Below are positions 9,391 through 63,976 of a stretch of 64,000 nt of DNA, piece after piece (position 1 is the stretch's first letter; each line of letters starts with the position of its first letter). Source of the stretch: a virus (Duplodnaviria; Caudoviricetes); IMG/VR virus record IMGVR_UViG_3300014039_000311, positions 28,754 to 92,753 of that record; one strand, 5' to 3'. Both the position numbers and the translations under genes were made by a program. Under the pieces are notes generated by a model, which was given only the letters and a program-made list of their open reading frames with translations, did no database searches and had not been told where the DNA came from.

Positions 9391-9819
9391 ATGATAGCAT
9401 TAAACGAAAACGATTATAGAAACATCATTGAGAATTGCGTCAGAAGACTCATTAAAGAAGACATATACGATGATGAAGAAGAAATAACACCTTTTGATGA
9501 CTATGCGCAAGATTATCCTAACGATGGCTTCAATGTCGATAATATGGATAGGGATGAACTTGCCGAATGGTGTCTTGAAAACGATTTCTTATATATTTAC
9601 AACCCATTCGGTAATTGGCGAATTTCTTGTGCAAACTCAAGTGAAATCCAAGAGGATATTGCGAACGATATACGGAACTGTGCCTATATTGAAAAAACTC
9701 ACGAAATGGATTGGCTGATTGAAAATAAGAAAAATCTATTCGGTTATCGTTCGCACATTGCGGTGTTTAAATTACATAACACCAAGGATGGTGATTATTA
9801 TGTAATTTACGAAGAATAA
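9391..9819 (+). CDS. putative head-packaged protein with LxE leader
   Basis: N-terminus MIALNENDYRNIIENCVRRLIKE. Confidence 0.5.
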   Translation: MIALNENDYRNIIENCVRRLIKEDIYDDEEEITPFDDYAQDYPNDGFNVDNMDRDELAEWCLENDFLYIYNPFGNWRISCANSSEIQEDIANDIRNCAYIEKTHEMDWLIENKKNLFGYRSHIAVFKLHNTKDGDYYVIYEE

Positions 9820-28576: not shown

Positions 28577-28876
28577 CTATTTCAATTTATTTAGAAAATC
28601 GTTCAAAGAATATAATTCTGAGTTTTCTTTTAACACCCTTAAACGATTTTCCTGCAACTGTTTCTTAGTAATAATTTTCCCTTCGTTTTGTGATTGTGCA
28701 GGAATTTGAATGTTAGCATTACTTAAATCAACTCCGTTATTTTTTGCGTTTTGTTTGGTCTTATCAATGGCTTGTTTCACGTCTCCATTACATGCATCCA
28801 CGTCTGCGTTTAAAGTAATGCCTTCACTTAAAGCTTTTTTATATTGGTCTTCACTAATCTTTAAATTTCTACCCAT
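28577..28876 (-). CDS. small head-associated protein with IxE leader
   Basis: MGRNLKISEDQY...ALSE; TATTTAT on minus at 28904-28910. Confidence 0.55.
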   Translation of the reverse strand: MGRNLKISEDQYKKALSEGITLNADVDACNGDVKQAIDKTKQNAKNNGVDLSNANIQIPAQSQNEGKIITKKQLQENRLRVLKENSELYSLNDFLNKLK

Positions 28877-40658: not shown

Positions 40659-41045
40659 TCATAGGTGATTGGTTGAAAGCAGACCGTTTTTAGAAATTTT
40701 ATTATAATACCAATCCTTAATAATTTGTTTTAAAAATTCCTTTCTGTCACTTTCATCCGAAATCATTCCATGAAATTTATCATCAAGAAATAACAGAAAC
40801 TCGCTTGGTTGCATTGTCTTTAAAGGTTGACCGCTGCTTGACAACATTACGACTGACGGTGATGTGCAAGGGTAGCCATTTGTATCAATGTCATCCAAGT
40901 TCTGTCTCTTAAAATTTTTATCCAAGTATTTCTTGATGAACAAAACTTTATCAGCATTTGGATAAAATGCCTCAGAAATTAATTCTGAAATTATTTCGTT
41001 TTCTTTGTTTTCACTTATTACTATGCGTTTCATTCTATTTGTCAC
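40659..41045 (-). CDS. putative head-packaged protein with IxE leader
   Basis: KRIVISENKENEIISELISE; TATTTAT on minus at 41061-41067. Confidence 0.5.
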   Translation of the reverse strand: MTNRMKRIVISENKENEIISELISEAFYPNADKVLFIKKYLDKNFKRQNLDDIDTNGYPCTSPSVVMLSSSGQPLKTMQPSEFLLFLDDKFHGMISDESDRKEFLKQIIKDWYYNKISKNGLLSTNHL

Positions 41046-49226: not shown

Positions 49227-49622
49227 ATGAAACAGACTTTTAGACTTACTGAGAGTGAATTACACAACATCATCAGTGAATGTATAACAGAAGCAATAGA
49301 AGACGAGGGGTTAGGCTCGTTCCTTGGAGGTATGGCTAAAAAATTCGGCCGTGACGCAGGCTCTGCAATGTCCAATATGAAAAACCGTGTGGTACAAGGT
49401 ACCAAGAACATGGGCAATCGAATTGCAAACAGCGCACAGAATGCTTGGCAAGGAGCAAAAGATTACGGTCAGTCACTTTATGACGCAGGTGTGCAACAGT
49501 CAAACATTAGTGATGCACAAACAGCCATTAAGACAATTCAAAGTCTCGTACAGAAAGGTATCTTAGGACAGAACATCGCCAATATGGTTATTGGAAACCT
49601 TAGAAAATACGGTAATCAGTAA
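49227..49622 (+). CDS. putative head-packaged protein with LxE leader and amphipathic body
   Basis: MKQTFRLTESELHNIISECITEAIEDE-GLGSFLGG. Confidence 0.55.
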   Translation: MKQTFRLTESELHNIISECITEAIEDEGLGSFLGGMAKKFGRDAGSAMSNMKNRVVQGTKNMGNRIANSAQNAWQGAKDYGQSLYDAGVQQSNISDAQTAIKTIQSLVQKGILGQNIANMVIGNLRKYGNQ

Positions 49623-50726: not shown

Positions 50727-50757
50727 TTTGTTAATTCGAAAATAGTTCATACCTTTG
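50727..50757 (+). promoter_or_regulatory. Bacteroidota primary-sigma promoter for metK
   Basis: TTTG 50727-50730, 19-nt spacer, TACCTTTG 50750-50757. Confidence 0.75.
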
Positions 50758-50773
50758 CAACCGTAAAACAAAA

Positions 50774-50845
50774 CGAGGGGATTTGTAGTGCTTGCACCTC
50801 GATAAAAACGCTAAAAATCTATTTTCAAAGACAGATTCCACTACA
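50774..50845 (+). ncRNA. SAM-II riboswitch (long-loop, Bacteroidota-type) in metK 5' UTR
   Basis: P1 cgagg/cctcg; conserved GAUUU, UUGC, AUAAA and GCUAAA elements; pseudoknot tgtagtg (50784-50790)/cactaca (50839-50845); inserted hairpin aatct/agatt; directly upstream of metK. Confidence 0.8.
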
Positions 50846-50885
50846 TAATATTAATTTAAATAACATTTTAAAAACAATTAATTTT

Positions 50886-52070
50886 ATGTGTAAAAAAATT
50901 ATTACAAGTGAATTTGTAAGCTGTGGTCATCCTGACAAAATTGCTGATACCATCGCCGATAGCCTATTGGATGCATACCTCAAGGGCGATAAGAATACTC
51001 GTGCAGGTATCGAGGTAATGGTTAAGGATAATATTGTTGTTCTTGGAGGTGAGGTGTCATCAAATGCTGTTATTAACTATGATACAATTGTTCGTTCAGT
51101 GTTTAAGGACTTGTGCTTCCCTTCAAATCACCATCTTCAGCCTGAGAATATTAAGATTATTAACCTTATAGGAAAGCAGTCATCGGAGATTCATAATGGT
51201 GTGGATAAGAGTGATGAGATTATTGGTGCTGGTGATCAAGGTTTTGTCGTGGGTTTTGCCTCTGATGATACTGATGTATATATGCCTTTGGGACACTATT
51301 TGGCAAAGGAGATTTGCCAATGGGTCGCAGAACAGAGAGATAAGGGTCTTGGTCCTGACACTAAATCGCAAGTAATTATCGAACATGATGGATACGAGAA
51401 CAAGGTTAAGTACATCCTTGTGTCAACGATGCATGATAAGAATGTCGACGTTGAGACGGTTAGAAATACTGTGAAAGAAGCTATATTCAGTAACGCCGTC
51501 AGCATAGATAATAAAACATTTGATAAATACCTCAAGGGAAGAGAGAGCGATATTGAAGTCGCAGTCAATCCATGTGGTGCTTGGCATATAGGTGGCCCAA
51601 TATCTGATTGTGGCGTTACTGGCAGAAAACTTGTAGTTGATCAATATGGAGGCTATTCCAACATAGGTGGAGGTGCCTTTGGGGGCAAGGAATATACTAA
51701 GGTTGACCGTTCTGCTGCTTATATGGCAAGGTATATTGCCAAGAATATCGTTGCATCTGGTATTGCAAAGACGGCCAAAGTCGAATTGTCATATGTGATT
51801 GGTGTACCTGAACCATCATCGGTGAATATCGAACTTGGAAGCGCAATCGAGAGTGTTAATATTGAAGCCCTTAAAAAGTGGATACAAAAGAAAGTCAATT
51901 TGACTCCTTATGGTATAATGACAAAGTTCGATTATTCGTTCCCACGTAATCAATTTAACGAAATTTATGGATTTTATGGTGTTGACGTGAATGAAAATAA
52001 AGATTTGGAAAGTTTTTATCCTTGGGAAAAGATCGATTTGGCAGATGAAATCGCCAAAGAATTTAAGTAA
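50886..52070 (+). CDS. metK: S-adenosylmethionine synthetase
   Basis: SEFVSCGHPDKIAD, GAGDQG, DCGVTGRKLVVDQYGG, GGGAFGGKEYTKVDRSAAY. Confidence 0.95.
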   Translation: MCKKIITSEFVSCGHPDKIADTIADSLLDAYLKGDKNTRAGIEVMVKDNIVVLGGEVSSNAVINYDTIVRSVFKDLCFPSNHHLQPENIKIINLIGKQSSEIHNGVDKSDEIIGAGDQGFVVGFASDDTDVYMPLGHYLAKEICQWVAEQRDKGLGPDTKSQVIIEHDGYENKVKYILVSTMHDKNVDVETVRNTVKEAIFSNAVSIDNKTFDKYLKGRESDIEVAVNPCGAWHIGGPISDCGVTGRKLVVDQYGGYSNIGGGAFGGKEYTKVDRSAAYMARYIAKNIVASGIAKTAKVELSYVIGVPEPSSVNIELGSAIESVNIEALKKWIQKKVNLTPYGIMTKFDYSFPRNQFNEIYGFYGVDVNENKDLESFYPWEKIDLADEIAKEFK

Positions 52071-52089
52071 AATAAATTGAATAAAATAA

Positions 52090-52125
52090 TATATGACGGG
52101 CAAGGTTTGTTCGTTATATATTTAT
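52090..52125 (+). terminator. metK terminator hairpin overlapping a TATTTAT late promoter (52119-52125)
   Basis: atatgacgggcaa-ggt-ttgttcgttatat stem with G-U pairs, then T-rich tract. Confidence 0.55.
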
Positions 52126-52148
52126 TTAATATCAAATAATTTAAAAGT

Positions 52149-52907
52149 ATGACTAATAAAGAAATAAACGAATATGCTTTCTTCAAAAAAGGGTTAAGAC
52201 TAATAAACGAGGCAGGAATTAATCGTATACTTAGTCATGGTAAATATGGTTTTATAATAATTTCAGCAAACCGTAGTGAAATTTCAAGCAGTAATCCTCA
52301 TAATGATTTGACTGGAAAATACGAACAGTGGTGTAATGAAAATAAAATTGATAACCCGTCAGATTTCGAGGTAATGAAGCAATGGCTTTCACAGCGTAAT
52401 AAACAAGCTGAAGCCGATTTAAAGGATGAATTGAAGAAATCTCCATTCGCATATACCCCGGTATTCGGAGGTTATCACGGAAGTGATGATGTTACTGATA
52501 GCTTTGAGCCGTCATACATTGTATACTGTCACGGTAAACATTATGCGACCGACTATTATCCATTCGAGAAATTGTTCAAATTCGCATTACATTTGTGTAA
52601 TGAATATCAGCAAGACAGCGTTTATATTCAAGCGCCTGACGAAGCTCCTATATGGGTTAACGGAGAAGGTGTAAAAATAAACAAAACGTCCACTAAAAAA
52701 TTTAAAATAAATGACTTCTCACAAACATATTATACAACTGTAAATAGAAGTAAACGAGATACCAAGGAAATGGGTCTTGACACTAAGCCACAAAGATTCA
52801 CGGCAGATATTCAGTTTGAAAGTAAAATGTATACTGTACCGGGTCCAAGTACTTACTTTGATAGAATGAAAAGAGAAACACTCGGAGAGGTATTTTTAAA
52901 TAATTAA
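52149..52907 (+). CDS. SAM lyase-like protein (T3 gp0.3 SAMase/DUF3293-like) with IxE leader
   Basis: FIIISANR, GGYHG, FEPSYIV, LCNEYQQDSVYI parallel the recalled T3 SAMase motifs VSAFR, GCYRE, EEKTV, CNEWEQDCVLV. Confidence 0.6.
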   Translation: MTNKEINEYAFFKKGLRLINEAGINRILSHGKYGFIIISANRSEISSSNPHNDLTGKYEQWCNENKIDNPSDFEVMKQWLSQRNKQAEADLKDELKKSPFAYTPVFGGYHGSDDVTDSFEPSYIVYCHGKHYATDYYPFEKLFKFALHLCNEYQQDSVYIQAPDEAPIWVNGEGVKINKTSTKKFKINDFSQTYYTTVNRSKRDTKEMGLDTKPQRFTADIQFESKMYTVPGPSTYFDRMKRETLGEVFLNN

Positions 52908-52930
52908 ATATAAATTTTAAAACAAAAAAT

Positions 52931-53773
52931 ATGGCAACTATATTAAACGAAAATAAGCTAAAGAGTATCATCCGTGAAAGTATTAACAAAATGCTCAATG
53001 AAAGTACCCTTAACCGCATCGAAGAATATATCAAGAATGAGGAATGCGCAATAATAACAGCGTGGCGAGACACATTACAAAATGTGACAAAAGAAACCTT
53101 TACACCTAAACACATTACTCACGAAAAAGGGCATCGAGGAAACAAGATTGTAACTGATGCAATGTTTAATGTCGGTGACAAATTTAGTACCGAAGAAAAA
53201 AAGTTTTATAATCGTGAATTAAAGGCTAAGTTACTTAAATATGGTTATGGCGTAACGCAGGTTCGAGGCACATACCGTGAAAGTGGCATCGAAGGGCAAG
53301 AAGAATCCTTATTTGTCGTCAATCGTAATAATGACCCTAATTTCAAGGATGTCTTATTTAAACTTTCTGAATATTATAATCAAGATTCTTTCTTGTATTC
53401 GCCAAAAGGAACAACAGAGGGTTATTTGATAGGGACTAATACATATGATTATCCTGGTTATAAGAATACTGTTCGCAGTGGACAATTTCGTAAAAATATA
53501 CAATCGATGTTTATGAGTCGAATAGGTAATAAAGGCTTCAGCTTTACTGATGGTAAAGAAATAGATAAGACTGATCCTGATAGGTTTAATAAATTGGATA
53601 ATGGCGACAATAATTATGAAATCGATAAACCCATGACATTCAAAGATAGAAAGCAAGAACGAATAAAAGGACTTAGTAATGAAAGTATTGAACGTTTATT
53701 GCGTATAGAAACTTATGAAGCGGCATCAATCAATGGCAAACATGCTATCTGCATATGTGCAAGAGGTCTATAA
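52931..53773 (+). CDS. second SAM lyase-like paralog with LxE leader
   Basis: IITAWR, GTYRE, QEESLFV, SEYYNQDSFLY; leader MATILNENKLKSIIRESINKMLNE. Confidence 0.6.
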   Translation: MATILNENKLKSIIRESINKMLNESTLNRIEEYIKNEECAIITAWRDTLQNVTKETFTPKHITHEKGHRGNKIVTDAMFNVGDKFSTEEKKFYNRELKAKLLKYGYGVTQVRGTYRESGIEGQEESLFVVNRNNDPNFKDVLFKLSEYYNQDSFLYSPKGTTEGYLIGTNTYDYPGYKNTVRSGQFRKNIQSMFMSRIGNKGFSFTDGKEIDKTDPDRFNKLDNGDNNYEIDKPMTFKDRKQERIKGLSNESIERLLRIETYEAASINGKHAICICARGL

Positions 53774-53794
53774 TAAAATATTATTCTAAATTAA

Positions 53795-54664
53795 ATGTCA
53801 AAAATATATAGTGATTATCGTGATAGGTTTAAACGATTAGTTGAATACACGGTGCATAACGATAAAGGCACTGTCGAGATTGGTGTTGATAATGCTGACA
53901 CTAACGGGTGGCAGTTCATAGGTGAAATTATATATGGAGGTTCTGATTGGCGTAAGAACGAAAGAAAATACATCCTATGTTATCCCGACTATACAGAAGA
54001 AATCATTAATTCAATAGGATTTAGTAGTTTCATAGGTAATTACCTTTCTATAAACGCTGACCCTAAAGGCTCTGATGGTGGAAAATACTTTTATTCGCTG
54101 TTTGATAGTCGTTTCGATAAAATAAGACTCAATGATGAATATAAAAATGGTATATTTGCATTGATATTTAAAAACTATCTCGTCGATGACGGTGATGATG
54201 CTACTCAAGGTTATAGAGAGCAGAAACATCAAGAGTTTATGGGAAAGGTATTCCAAGTGGGCGACAACGTTATAATGCATCATAATAGTTCGGCGAAGAT
54301 AACCGATGGCGTTATTAAACCAGGGATGCCTAAGAATAGTTATTCAAACAACAATGATTGGGGAATATATTTTTGGGCGAGTCGCAATAGTGGTGCTGAT
54401 CAATCTAGCGGAGGAGAATATACCTATTATTGTATTGTTCCTATCGAAGAAACTTATGATGTCGAAAACAATATTGAGAATTTTAAGAGTGATAAGGAAG
54501 CAATAACTAAATATCCATATCAATTAAAGGATTGGAAGAATGGTCAAGCTATCGCTTGTCAGACGAACAAGCCTACACCAATATGGAGAATTAGGTCAAA
54601 CTCTAACGGTAAATGGTTTGACAATGAATGGCAAGAGGTTGAAAAACCAAGTATTTTAGATTAA
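53795..54664 (+). CDS. hypothetical protein, possible ART-like C-terminal domain
   Basis: VIMHHNSS...IKPG...GIYFW pattern; N-terminal RLVE site. Confidence 0.45.
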   Translation: MSKIYSDYRDRFKRLVEYTVHNDKGTVEIGVDNADTNGWQFIGEIIYGGSDWRKNERKYILCYPDYTEEIINSIGFSSFIGNYLSINADPKGSDGGKYFYSLFDSRFDKIRLNDEYKNGIFALIFKNYLVDDGDDATQGYREQKHQEFMGKVFQVGDNVIMHHNSSAKITDGVIKPGMPKNSYSNNNDWGIYFWASRNSGADQSSGGEYTYYCIVPIEETYDVENNIENFKSDKEAITKYPYQLKDWKNGQAIACQTNKPTPIWRIRSNSNGKWFDNEWQEVEKPSILD

Positions 54665-54838
54665 TTAACGATAAAGATTATAATGTTGTCACAAAAAAGT
54701 ACTACCTTTGTGACAACATTTTATATATAAGATGACATATGAGTAATAATAAAGGCAATGGTGCATTAGCTCTCATGCTAAAAGCTGCGTGCGCTGATGG
54801 CAATGCAATGGAATTATTAAATAAAGAGTAAATTGCCA

Positions 54839-55831
54839 ATGACTGCAAGAAAAACTACGAGGCAATTTATCTTAGAGGCAAAAAAAGTACATGGAAATAA
54901 GTATAATTATTCAAAGACAAAATATATTAACGCAAAAGTCAAAGTCTGTATTATATGCCCCGAACACGGAGAATTTTGGCAGACACCGTATAAACATTTA
55001 AATGGGCACGGATGCCACAAATGCTGTAAGACCGGTATTAAGTACACCACAAAAGAATTTAAAGATAAAGTGAATGAGATACATAATGGAGAGATATATG
55101 TCGCTAATGACGCACTCTATGTTAATTCTCACACGAATATAAAAATGATATGCCCTAAACATGGTGAATTTTGGACGAAGCCTAATTACATTCTTAGTCG
55201 TCATGGCTGTCCGAAATGTGGTATTAAAAAGGTAAAGGAGAAAATGAGTTTCACAATTGAAGACTTTATTAAAAAGGCTAAAGGCATTCATAAAGACGAA
55301 TATGATTATCAATTAAGTGAATACAATGGATACGATATGCCTATTAAGATTATTTGTCACAAAGCAGATAAAAATGGAAAAGAGCACGGAGTATTTTTAC
55401 AGTCACCGCATTCACATTTATCAGGGCATGGCTGTCCTTTATGTAAAATGAGCAATTTGGAACGGAAAATATATTGCTTATTAAAAGAATATAATATAAA
55501 ATTTGAATATGAGAAAAATTTTAAATGGTTAGGCTTACAGACATTAGACTTTTACCTACCTGATTATAATGTCGCTATTGAATGTCAAGGGATACAACAT
55601 TTTGAACCTTGCAATTTCGGCAGTACTATAAAAACGCCTCAAGAAATGTTTGATTATGTAAGGGAATGCGATAATAGAAAATATAAATTATGTAACGAAA
55701 ATGGTGTAAGATTGTTATATTACAAACAAGGTAAATTACCTTCATGGGTGATAAATGCAGATGAATATTATTCGAATAAAAAAAGATTAATTAAATCAAT
55801 AATAACAAATGGAAAATATAAAGATATTTAA
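54839..55831 (+). CDS. free-standing endonuclease (3 zinc-ribbon repeats + Vsr/DUF559-like domain)
   Basis: CPEHGEFWQTP..HL.GHGC repeats; TLDFYLPDYNVAIECQGIQH. Confidence 0.75.
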   Translation: MTARKTTRQFILEAKKVHGNKYNYSKTKYINAKVKVCIICPEHGEFWQTPYKHLNGHGCHKCCKTGIKYTTKEFKDKVNEIHNGEIYVANDALYVNSHTNIKMICPKHGEFWTKPNYILSRHGCPKCGIKKVKEKMSFTIEDFIKKAKGIHKDEYDYQLSEYNGYDMPIKIICHKADKNGKEHGVFLQSPHSHLSGHGCPLCKMSNLERKIYCLLKEYNIKFEYEKNFKWLGLQTLDFYLPDYNVAIECQGIQHFEPCNFGSTIKTPQEMFDYVRECDNRKYKLCNENGVRLLYYKQGKLPSWVINADEYYSNKKRLIKSIITNGKYKDI

Positions 55832-56630
55832 TGAAGATTGTAGAGAAACTATGAGGAGGCTTAAGTTAAATAACGTAAAAGTCGACCTTACTGTAACTTC
55901 GCCTCCATATGATGATTTGAGAACTTATAATAATTCATCTGAATGGAATTTTGACATTTTTAAACAAGTAGCTCAAGGATTATGGGATATTACTTCGGAT
56001 GGTGGCGTAGTTGTGTGGGTCGTTGGTGATGCAACCATTAATGGTAGTGAAACTGGTACTTCTTTCAAACAAGCCCTCTACTTTATGGAACTTGGCTTCA
56101 AATTACACGATACTATGCTGTATGAAAAAAATAGCTCATCGTTTCCGTCCTCAAGAAAAAGTAAACGTTACACTCAAATTTTTGAATATATGTTTGTGTT
56201 CGTCAAAGGTAAAATAAGAACTTGTAATCTTATCTGCGACAAACCTAATAAATGGGCAGGACATACCAATTGGGGAAATAATACACAATATAATAAGGAC
56301 GGTGAGTTAATACCAACGAACAATATTAAACCAGTTCCAGATTTTTCACCACGTAACAACATATGGAAATATACCGTAGGCTTTAATGTTAATGAAGGTA
56401 AACATCCTGCGGTTTTCCCATATAAATTGGCGGAAGACCATATATTGACTTGGAGTAATGAAGGTGATACAATCTTTGATCCATTTATGGGCAGTGGTAC
56501 AACAGGCTTTGCTGCCATTCATAACAATAGGAAATTTATTGGCTGCGAAATAGATAGAACGTATTTTGATGCCTTCGAACAGAATTATAAGAAATATCAA
56601 AAAAGGTGGGAAAAGGAGACTACTAATTGA
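55809..56630 (+). CDS. DNA amino-methyltransferase (N4C/N6A, beta class)
   Basis: TSPPY motif IV before DPFMGSGTT motif I; HPAVFP. Confidence 0.9.
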   Translation: MENIKIFNEDCRETMRRLKLNNVKVDLTVTSPPYDDLRTYNNSSEWNFDIFKQVAQGLWDITSDGGVVVWVVGDATINGSETGTSFKQALYFMELGFKLHDTMLYEKNSSSFPSSRKSKRYTQIFEYMFVFVKGKIRTCNLICDKPNKWAGHTNWGNNTQYNKDGELIPTNNIKPVPDFSPRNNIWKYTVGFNVNEGKHPAVFPYKLAEDHILTWSNEGDTIFDPFMGSGTTGFAAIHNNRKFIGCEIDRTYFDAFEQNYKKYQKRWEKETTN

Positions 56631-57710: not shown

Positions 57711-58010
57711 ATGATATTTGGATACGCAATAATGCAACCAAGAATACAATGCGATTTAGATACCGATTATCAAGAAATCGCAAGATCGGGATTGAAACGA
57801 ATACGTTTATTTTTGAATGAAAAAGAACGAGATGAATCGGCTGAAAAAGTAAGGTATGATAGTCGTTACGACTTAGAAGCTGAAAAATTCATAACAAAAT
57901 CGAATCAAGGTAAACTTAAGATTATATCATATAAGCAATATTATGAAATGGTACAAAGAATTAGACAACTAGAGGAAGAGCTATCTAAATATAAAAGCAA
58001 TGAACAATAA
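57711..58010 (+). CDS. hypothetical protein
   Basis: First ORF after TACTTTTG promoter at 57660-57667. Confidence 0.55.
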   Translation: MIFGYAIMQPRIQCDLDTDYQEIARSGLKRIRLFLNEKERDESAEKVRYDSRYDLEAEKFITKSNQGKLKIISYKQYYEMVQRIRQLEEELSKYKSNEQ

Positions 58011-58641
58011 AATTAAAACAGGATATTTTTTCGGCACATTCAATCCGATACATAATGGTCACTTATCGATGGCAAATTATATATTGGATAATACGGATAT
58101 TGATAGAGTGGATTTCGTGATAAGTCCAAATTCACCATTTAAAGAACATTCAGATATGTTATTAGATTTCCCACATCGATGCAATCTAATCAGAGAGGCT
58201 ATAAAAGATAATGGTCGACTTAATTACAATTGTATTGAATATGAATTACTCCACGAAAGTCAAGAAAATCGGATATATACTTGCGATACCTTAAATAAAT
58301 CGCAAGAAATCGAAGGTAAAGAATACGAAATTGCTTTAATTTTAGGCGAGGATAATTTTGCAAATATTGAAAGTTTTAAAAATTACTATCAGATTTTGAG
58401 GAATTTCGAAATTTATGTATGCCCAAGGACTGAAAAGTTAGTAAAATTGGATTATAAAGTTACTAATTTTAACAAATATGGAAAAATCAAAGGCGTAAAT
58501 TTCTTAAATTCGATGCCGATCAATACCGTCAGTTCAACATTCATTAGAAATGAGATTAAAAATAGGCATTTCAATACAATTTCAAGCCTTTTACCAAAAA
58601 AAGTAATTAATTTAATAAAATATGGAAAATTATATCAATAG
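58000..58641 (+). CDS. nadD: nicotinate/nicotinamide mononucleotide adenylyltransferase
   Basis: FFGTFNPIHNGH, SPNSPFK, YTCDTL, ILGEDN, VSSTFIR. Confidence 0.9.
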   Translation: MNNKIKTGYFFGTFNPIHNGHLSMANYILDNTDIDRVDFVISPNSPFKEHSDMLLDFPHRCNLIREAIKDNGRLNYNCIEYELLHESQENRIYTCDTLNKSQEIEGKEYEIALILGEDNFANIESFKNYYQILRNFEIYVCPRTEKLVKLDYKVTNFNKYGKIKGVNFLNSMPINTVSSTFIRNEIKNRHFNTISSLLPKKVINLIKYGKLYQ

Positions 58642-59521: not shown

Positions 59522-60004
59522 ATGAAACAAAATACTTTAAGAAAAAGAATTATGAACGAGGTTAAGACACAAATCTGTAATATTGTAAATGAAGAAATAA
59601 CCAAGATTACTGAAAGACAGAAACTCAAGAATAAAATTAAGCCTCTTGTCACAGAAGAATTGAAACGTATGGTCAACGAGGGAAAGGACTATGCGAAACT
59701 TCAAGAGGTTATTTGGGTTGATGGCAGTAGTGGCCGAGGAGATGAAAATGATATGGAGACGCTTAACCAAATGTATGATAACAATGACTATCAAGGAATG
59801 TTAGACTATTTGGCACAATGGGACTATGGTGAAGACAGTGGAGGCGAGATATATGATGACGTGCAACAGTATGACGACGTTCTATTAGAAACACCTGAAT
59901 ATATCCTCGTTACAGTAGACCCTATTCATTATATGGGAGATAGGGCATACGGTCTCTATGTAAAGATTTCGGCAGACGAAGCCAAACAAAGAGGATTACT
60001 TTAA
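59522..60004 (+). CDS. putative head-packaged protein
   Basis: Repeated xNE/xTE sites in the N-terminal third; overlapping divergent TATTTAT motifs at 59483-59494. Confidence 0.55.
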   Translation: MKQNTLRKRIMNEVKTQICNIVNEEITKITERQKLKNKIKPLVTEELKRMVNEGKDYAKLQEVIWVDGSSGRGDENDMETLNQMYDNNDYQGMLDYLAQWDYGEDSGGEIYDDVQQYDDVLLETPEYILVTVDPIHYMGDRAYGLYVKISADEAKQRGLL

Positions 60005-62830: not shown

Positions 62831-63976
62831 ATGATAATAAAACTTTCGAGAAAACAGCTTGATGAGGTCAGATATATAGACGCAGCCAATCGGGATATGA
62901 CATCACGGATGGATAGACCTTATCGTAAAGATTGGCAAGAAAAATATAACCAACAGCCAATCACGAATAACGATAAAATCAGAGTGTACCATGGATGCTC
63001 ATTGAAAACTGCATTGGATATATGCAAGAACGGAACGAGTGGAAAAGAATATCATCCACGTACTTACTCGTATGAGAACGGAATGAATCCATTGGGCATC
63101 TTCGTAACTGTTAATTTTGACAAAGCCAAGGATTTTGGCTATGACCCAAAGGCGATGTGTATTCTTGAATTTACAGTAAAAGCCTCTGATTTGGAAGCAC
63201 CTGTATGGAATAACTCAGATTCGTATTTTGGCCAAGGGTCAAACCCTCAGCCATTTAGAGATGCAGATGAAAGAAAGAAGCAGAAACAGAAATATGATGA
63301 CGATGCAAGAAATTTTCCTGATGAGACATATTGGGATTATAATAAGAAAAAAGATGTTAAATTAGACCGTAGCTATATTCGTAACTCTGACAAACCCGCA
63401 ATGGCTAAAAGTGTATTCGACAACTATGAACACCAAGCGTTATTTATGGGCGACCTTAATCCGAACATGATAAAATATGTATGGGTCTGTGAGAATGGTC
63501 AGAATCAATATCAACGATATACTGAAAAAGACTTTTTAATAAAATATAATACCGATGATAATGGCAAAAAGAAATTAAGACTTCGTAAGGATAAGCTGTT
63601 TCTACCGGATGAAAGTGTCAAATCTTGGGATGAGGTAATTAATCGAATTGTAAAACGAGATGAAGGAAGTCCTTGGGCAATGAGTAAGGAAGAGGTAATT
63701 AACGTATTCAAAGAATACAATATAATGGATAATCCAAACTCAAGCTTTGCATTGGATTACATTAAGCAAATATTTTGGCCTAGACAAATAATCCAATTGT
63801 ACGGTAAGGATTTCTTTAATAAGAATTTTAATCACCTTGAACAAGACTTTAACGAAAACCTTACGTATAATGATAGTTTTATATTGACCGAAGGCTCTTG
63901 GGGATATGAACTTAATCAAAATGACTCTACCCTTGATACTATTAACAGATGGTATGGTCAATTACCCACAGGCTGA
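62831..63976 (+). CDS. ART-like domain protein with leader, truncated by IS insertion
   Basis: IRVYHGCS...GIFVT...AKDFG...ILEF ART-like core; last residues QLPTG* come from the IS. Confidence 0.55.
   Translation: MIIKLSRKQLDEVRYIDAANRDMTSRMDRPYRKDWQEKYNQQPITNNDKIRVYHGCSLKTALDICKNGTSGKEYHPRTYSYENGMNPLGIFVTVNFDKAKDFGYDPKAMCILEFTVKASDLEAPVWNNSDSYFGQGSNPQPFRDADERKKQKQKYDDDARNFPDETYWDYNKKKDVKLDRSYIRNSDKPAMAKSVFDNYEHQALFMGDLNPNMIKYVWVCENGQNQYQRYTEKDFLIKYNTDDNGKKKLRLRKDKLFLPDESVKSWDEVINRIVKRDEGSPWAMSKEEVINVFKEYNIMDNPNSSFALDYIKQIFWPRQIIQLYGKDFFNKNFNHLEQDFNENLTYNDSFILTEGSWGYELNQNDSTLDTINRWYGQLPTG

Follow-up and report, generated by a model that had tools for sequence, protein, structure and literature searches.

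A gene for S-adenosylmethionine (SAM) synthetase, metK, was found beside two genes of the SAM lyase family, here named A and B, in a stretch of phage DNA of 64,000 nucleotides (nt), hereafter the window (Caudoviricetes; IMG/VR record IMGVR_UViG_3300014039_000311, positions 28,754 to 92,753). The metK gene is preceded by a SAM-II riboswitch, and the lyase genes follow a putative late promoter and encode predicted N-terminal propeptides. Each of these parts is already known; no publication was found, in a literature search of partial coverage, that describes a SAM lyase that is late and bears a propeptide, or the linkage of such a gene to a metK under riboswitch control. The arrangement may represent a SAM module with two timings, carried by T4-like jumbo phages that infect Prevotella-like Bacteroidales, a reading to which an even chance is assigned.

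The window, from an uncultured gut phage, is part of a contig of 92.7 kb that covers about 25% of the genome of a jumbo phage (near-complete relatives measure 335-373 kb). The contig encodes a T4-like major capsid protein, a head maturation protease, a portal, and a terminase. A Prevotella-like Bacteroidales host is suggested by the TAnnTTTG promoters, the SAM-II long-loop switch, the lyase homologues that occur in Prevotella Lak phages, and the fact that two relatives carry a metK derived from Prevotella.

Linkage of metK and SAM lyase genes

The locus consists of three units. The first comprises a host-type promoter, the SAM-II aptamer, metK, and a hairpin; the second a late promoter, lyases A and B, a third gene of 289 amino acids (aa), and a hairpin; and the third a second host-type promoter box, an optional HNH-type gene, and a DNA methyltransferase (MTase) gene. 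All features listed in an initial annotation, made from the sequence alone, were present where it had placed them, and the parts are very likely what they are named here. Two genes lie between the lyases and the MTase, namely the conserved 289-aa gene (53795-54664), which had been overlooked, and the HNH-type gene. The features of metK and the lyases are as follows.

50727..50757, + strand: Bacteroidota housekeeping-sigma promoter (TTTG, 19 nt, TAnnTTTG), from sequence; the box precedes metK in most related loci
50769..50824, + strand: SAM-II long-loop riboswitch aptamer (RF01726, 34 bits, E 5.7e-5)
50886..52070, + strand: metK, SAM synthetase, 394 aa, of an old phage clade (Pfam, TIGR01034, motifs, tree)
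52088..52125, + strand: terminator-like hairpin with overlapping putative late promoter TATTTAT at 52119-52125 (folding statistics, motif scan)
52149..52907, + strand: SAM lyase family protein A, 252 aa (PF23780, 29.5 bits; predicted leader to E21; G107, Y109, E120, Q155)
52931..53773, + strand: SAM lyase family protein B, 280 aa (PF23780, 42.9 bits; predicted leader to E24; G113, Y115, E124, Q151)

The linkage was conserved among related jumbo phages. In loci found through metK, a lyase gene lay within 3 kb of metK in seven of the 11 lineages of the MetK group (one had the 289-aa partner only and three had neither), as compared with none of 152 other metK loci, many of them short or non-jumbo; the lineages share ancestry, and their counts are not independent. 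The adjacency survives reversal of gene order (L056 and L061), exchange of the lyase subfamily, and replacement of metK, amid otherwise reshuffled neighbours. Four lyase subfamilies (A, B, DUF3293, and a fourth) occupy the place beside metK. With respect to metK itself, locus L063 carries a Prevotella-type gene, with promoter and switch, where its relatives L010 and L018 have a phage-clade metK (about 6 kb from the lyase). Similarly, a Prevotella-type metK stands directly before the lyase in L026, and a third, deep MetK lineage adjoins the lyase in L007. A single clade of Prevotella-derived and phage MetKs was rejected (p-AU 0.015, post hoc), in a test based on quick trees that omitted L060 and L068 and used a group chosen after the first tree. 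Additionally, all three near-complete genomes found through metK hold a lyase-family gene.

The assignment of A and B as SAM-lyase-like was borne out by profile and by fold. Both PF23780 scores exceed the curated cut-off of 28 bits, and the predicted models (pLDDT 84 for A and 89 for B) aligned across the whole barrel with the phage T3 SAM lyase (SAMase), at Z 8.7 (rmsd 3.8, 131 aligned residues) for A and Z 12.2 (rmsd 2.9, 136 aligned residues) for B in VIA-align. The T3 enzyme was also the top Foldseek match (E 0.03 and 0.001, respectively), and the next VIA-align matches were at Z 5.8 and 5.6. Svi3-3, the other structure that the initial annotation had proposed for comparison, gave a weaker match (Z 5.2 for A and 5.6 for B), and a SAM-AMP lyase was matched at Z 4.4 by A and was not listed for B. 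Searches of the PDB with single sequences returned chance matches only.

The catalytic set that is conserved in proven SAM lyases consists of G56, Y58, E69, and Q104 in Svi3-3, with E68 and Q94 in T3 (PMC7877911; bioRxiv 2023.02.27.530186). Among homologues of A, G107 was conserved in 65/67, Y109 in 67/67, E120 in 65/67, and Q155 in 67/67; among those of B, G113 was conserved in 69/70, E124 in 69/70, and Q151 in 70/70. The register of the catalytic Glu was set from the A/B profile alignment and spacing, without superposition. Because the counterparts of G, Y, E, and Q are close to invariant, A and B are very likely active lyases, and their substrate is probably SAM. The parallels to T3 motifs that had been noted initially were recovered as well, as G-x-Y, EE, and Q-D align with the B family (E 1.8, weak alone). 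A and B, initially described as paralogs, represent old subfamilies (28% over 100 aa; profile match 96.6%) rather than the products of a recent duplication.

The product of metK scores above the cut-offs of its three Pfam domains and of the TIGR01034 equivalog (351 bits versus 309), and the active-site motifs are intact. The main phage MetK clade stands apart in the tree, outside the sampled Bacteroidales MetKs. The riboswitch was supported, with a significant E value for RF01726 but a score below the gathering score of 44; a search at the Rfam gathering threshold gave no match, and the switch was visible only in the E-value search. RF01726 was found upstream of metK in 10 of the genomes searched, with one relative over the cut-off at 46.4 bits. 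The SAM-II core motifs and P1 stem are kept before metK, and the P1 stems of relatives differ in sequence with pairing retained. This retention before MetKs only 47-74% identical to the one encoded here suggests that the regulation is under selection. A possible distal partner of the riboswitch loop was located at 50839-50845 (P 0.03 here, modest alone); the distal helix was seen in phage and host leaders and was significant in three of nine phage leaders, and no weight was placed on it. In metK leaders of host Bacteroidales, SAM-II lies 60-65 nt from the start, with the same spacing as here.

The host-sigma promoter before metK was confirmed, with TTTG at 50727 and TACCTTTG at 50750 separated by 19 nt, an arrangement that corresponds to the Bacteroidota promoter consensus. 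The promoter is not of the sigma-70 class; a sigma-70 scan was at chance level (50 versus 47) and does not cover this host. Downstream of metK, the hairpin at 52088-52122 had a z of -5.4, which was equalled in 0/200 shuffles. Its U-tract is weak, and the terminator that had been claimed there is thus only likely. A hairpin with TATTTAT is likewise found 3' of metK in L001, L017, and L051.

Several side observations concern these genes. DUF3293 (PF11697) domains at L017:3739-6693, L054 and L062:7558-9675, L061:4488-5249, and L056:3796-4551 have the lyase pattern of G-x-Y/F, E, and Q, cross-match to PF23780, and occupy the place of the lyase beside metK; DUF3293 is probably a domain of the SAM lyase superfamily. 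A degenerate lyase-B-like gene of 155 aa is present between metK and lyase B in L019 (5505-5972) and L022 (5495-5962). It has no visible late promoter and may be a decayed copy or possibly an inhibitor; it was not included among the lyases, as the catalytic motifs and loop are missing. In L001 (5962-7728), an IS605-type TnpB frame continues in frame into a lyase domain of the fourth subfamily, directly upstream of the metK promoter. In L302 (8001-8765), a homologue of lyase A stands beside an IS1595 transposase amid bacterial housekeeping genes, which suggests capture by a host chromosome. The metK gene is frequent in phages in general (135 GenBank records), and in L019 and L023 (3269-5443) its product is 724 aa long and contains, following residue 270, an in-frame insert of about 320 aa that is probably an intein.

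Predicted late expression and packaging

The TATTTAT motif at 52119 lies 30 nt before the ATG of lyase A, and the same motif was found 25-38 nt upstream of the capsid, scaffold, protease, portal, and terminase genes. Because it is placed before structural genes and lyase A alike, it appears by association to be a late promoter, in agreement with the separate late promoter proposed initially.

The leaders of A and B had been likened to those of cargo processed by the prohead protease, and this likeness holds across the family. A leader of variable length (11-72 aa in A) is closed by [ILV]xE in 126/137 homologues (62/67 for A and 64/70 for B), and the conserved core begins right after this motif, mostly with a small residue. 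Leaders contain further cleavage-type sites (3.1 and 5.2 per 100 aa) at six to eight times the density of cores (0.4 and 0.9 per 100 aa). Polyproteins show a related pattern. For example, a 984-aa chain in L017 consists of the partner, a lyase, a DUF3293-type lyase, and another lyase, with [IL]xE-type sites at the joints, and similar polyproteins with such sites at domain joints were found in L054 and L062. The N-terminus of PANV1 gp48, a lyase homologue, resembles the capsid-targeting sequence of T4. Over the contig, which also encodes the head protease, at least two sites within the first 45 aa were observed in 15/35 genes behind TATTTAT and in 3/54 others (p 3e-5). Head-packaged proteins of T4 have an N-terminal propeptide that is cut after Glu by gp21, and they are ejected into the host (PMC9026906). 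Packaging and ejection of the lyases are accordingly rated as likely from sequence.

The late unit contains a third gene and is closed by a second hairpin.

53795..54664, + strand: third late partner, 289 aa, of an unnamed family with 75 clusters; next to lyases, or joined with them in one protein, in many phages
54682..54720, + strand: hairpin closing the late unit, which contains a second TAnnTTTG box at 54703 (folding, motif)

The partner is found 3' of the lyases in L010, L015-16, L018, L019, L022-23, L051, and L143, and several proteins are fusions of the two; its homologues also have [IL]xE leaders. No family could be assigned to it with Pfam, PHROG, NCBIfam, a PDB profile search, or comparison of profiles. 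Its nearest named Atlas clusters were Arr/PARP at 0.88, and on motifs and these neighbours it is possibly ADP-ribosyltransferase-like, which is offered as a lead only. The second TAnnTTTG box is at the matching place in L019 and L022. As a side observation, the long proteins P0218, P0220, P0224, P0227, and P0254 combine the partner domain with nucleotidyltransferase, poly(A)-polymerase, and HD domains.

A proposed coupled SAM module and its alternatives

The third unit supplies the likely client of MetK.

54833..55831, + strand: optional HNH/homing-endonuclease-like gene (phrog_559, E 7e-60), which overlaps the MTase start
55809..56630, + strand: N4/N6 DNA methyltransferase, 273 aa (PF01555, E 3e-40), likely SAM client

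The MTase gene named in the initial annotation is thus present, but it is not a fixed member of the module. The HNH-type gene is present in L022 and absent in L019 and L023. Among 11 metK-bearing genomes, 10 encode two to four full-length PF01555 MTases, plus D12 genes, and no full PF01555 gene was found in the metK-less G004 and two Lak records. This pattern, seen in few independent lineages, agrees with a supply of SAM by MetK for phage methylation. Separately, MTase genes were observed within about 2 kb of lyases that have no metK nearby in L303, L304, and L307.

In the proposed sequence of events, the two lyases and their 289-aa partner would be transcribed late and would probably enter the prohead by their N-terminal propeptides, to be trimmed at [IL]xE by a gp21-type protease. 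Ejected with the DNA, the lyases would, going by their family, split SAM into methylthioadenosine and homoserine lactone, and the loss of SAM would weaken SAM-dependent defences such as type I restriction and bacteriophage exclusion (BREX) before phage gene expression. The metK gene would be transcribed early by the host polymerase and, as is typical of its riboswitch family, would be repressed by SAM and so made when SAM is low. In the least certain step, MetK would resupply SAM to the several MTases of the phage, offsetting either the injected lyase or late lyase precursors, two sources of drain that cannot be told apart. That MetK is kept to offset the lyases is given as good a chance as not. 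The exact sequence proposed initially, in which injected lyases collapse SAM, low SAM turns on MetK through the riboswitch, and the pool is rebuilt for the MTases, is possible but somewhat doubtful. A selected circuit, in which a virion-delivered SAM sink and its co-packaged partner are coupled to a SAM-sensing SAM source, is held equally tentatively.

A number of observations weigh against the coupled module. Besides the shared ancestry of the lineages, metK is missing from the surroundings of many lyase loci (L003-006, L302-307), the complete G004 and the Lak phages carry lyases without metK, and the two genes are 16-54 kb apart in G001, G002, and G005. Because complete genomes carry lyases without metK, the lyase does not need metK, and the dependence is one-way. 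The riboswitch is absent before several lyase-linked metK genes (L007, L056, L143), and SAM-II is the ordinary leader of Bacteroidales metK, which alone is no proof of a circuit. The MTase gene is adjacent only in L019, L022, L023, and, upstream, L051, and a separate host-type promoter box belongs to it; the contrast in MTase content rests on two metK-less lineages. Restored SAM would re-arm host restriction, and the model therefore needs tight timing. At the 9.5 turnovers per second of Svi3-3, collapse of the pool within minutes is estimated to need hundreds of copies per head. As regards packaging, a distant lyase homologue in IBB_35 (gene 5-9) was not among 38 virion proteins detected by low-coverage gel proteomics (PMC3322345). 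The 11 bands listed for virions of CP220, a cultured carrier of another homologue (CPT_0131), likewise do not include that protein; a further cultured carrier is Alishewanella Slickus01.

Some of these points are shared by a reading in which the lyases act as packaged anti-defence enzymes and metK serves the phage MTases independently of them, the two being uncoupled neighbours by descent or in a cargo hot spot. Lyases are common without metK and far from it in three genomes, the SAM-II leader is part of the normal host cassette, the interval acquires other genes (L018, L063), and the presence of metK tracks MTase content. This reading is nevertheless considered unlikely, and the adjacency argues against it by outlasting order reversal, subfamily swaps, and metK replacement in genomes that reshuffle. 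A different substrate was absent from the initial interpretation: one or both proteins might cleave SAM-AMP, the messenger of type III CRISPR-CorA systems, and act as packaged anti-CRISPRs like AcrIIIB4, with several paralogues covering different SAM-derived substrates. SAM-AMP lyases share the catalytic E and Q of SAM lyases, and a phage enzyme cleaves SAM-AMP and not SAM (bioRxiv 2025.04.28.651013). The messenger was first described in Bacteroides fragilis, which is of the right host group, up to three divergent lyases occur per locus, and 9gad/9gab are among the fold matches of A, although weak. The models match the monomeric T3 SAMase far better (Z 8.7 and 12.2 versus 4.4 for A), and the metK link would be left unexplained, so that SAM-AMP cleavage appears improbable.

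The initial annotation had also pointed to the inhibition of host MetK by the T3 enzyme. By analogy, a lyase here could inhibit host MetK, with the phage MetK as a resistant replacement, or could regulate the phage MetK. The closest structure, T3 SAMase, does inhibit MetK in a host-specific manner, and the main phage MetK clade is apart from Bacteroidales MetKs. However, neither A nor B has counterparts of the T3 residues that contact MetK (N-terminal tail and beta4-beta5 loop; Q103/T104/T106), and two phages have at this locus a Prevotella-type MetK, which should then be inhibited. T3-like binding was therefore not upheld and such a double action is very improbable, although MetK may be bound through another lyase surface.

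Comparison with known systems and neighbouring genes

The T3 SAM lyase (gene 0.3, PF23780; PDB 7OCK, 8BB1) shares with A and B the fold, the catalytic G-x-Y, E, and Q, and probably an anti-restriction and anti-BREX role. T3 makes this protein before all others once it has entered the cell (PMC8406200); the enzyme is single, lacks a propeptide, and inhibits host MetK. In contrast, the genes described here are late, have protease-type leaders, occur as several subfamilies or polyproteins without the MetK-contact residues, and lie beside a SAM synthetase gene. Svi3-3/Orf1 (PDB 6ZM9) and the SAM-AMP lyases (C. botulinum 9GAD; AcrIIIB4) belong to the same superfamily and have the catalytic E and Q, but they are trimeric and PII-like, match A and B more weakly (Z 4.4-5.6), and have no reported tie to metK or packaging. 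The T4 proteins IPI, IPII, IPIII, and Alt are products of late genes with an N-terminal propeptide, as A and B appear to be from sequence alone. IPI blocks a restriction enzyme, and Alt has ADP-ribosyltransferase activity (PMC9026906). No description of a SAM lyase was found for this group of T4 head-packaged effectors. The Bacteroidales RF01726 metK cassette has the same aptamer, spacing, and promoter type, whereas here a MetK of the phage clade is combined with a Bacteroidales-type switch and linked to SAM-destroying genes. In a literature search of partial coverage, no publication was found that describes a metK-lyase module, head packaging of a SAM lyase, or the presence of DUF3293 in phages.

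If the lyase is packaged in the head, it would act ahead of all phage gene expression, whereas T3 must express its own after entry, and this would be a new route for SAM-depleting counter-defence. The leader pattern suggests that packaged lyases occur widely among T4-like and jumbo phages, including the Lak phages. Destroying SAM while methylating its own DNA with several MTases places a phage in conflict, to which a riboswitch-controlled metK that is kept, and even re-acquired, beside the lyases offers a testable answer. The polyproteins also offer a way of cataloguing additional injected effectors, and through them DUF3293 is connected with the SAM lyase superfamily.

Other genes of the window include further candidate head proteins. 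Small genes at 49227-49622, 59522-60004, 40659-41033, and 9391-9819, most of them behind TATTTAT, encode [IL]xE-rich N-termini. On visual inspection, a late-promoter gene at 62831-63976 shows an H-G and G-I-F pattern like that of ADP-ribosyltransferases; it has no Pfam match, and its product is another candidate packaged effector. Additionally, a NadD gene (TIGR00482, over the cut-off) at 58000-58641, 1.4 kb beyond the MTase gene, lies in a unit with a host-type promoter, which places a source of nicotinamide adenine dinucleotide (NAD) near a possible NAD-using late protein.

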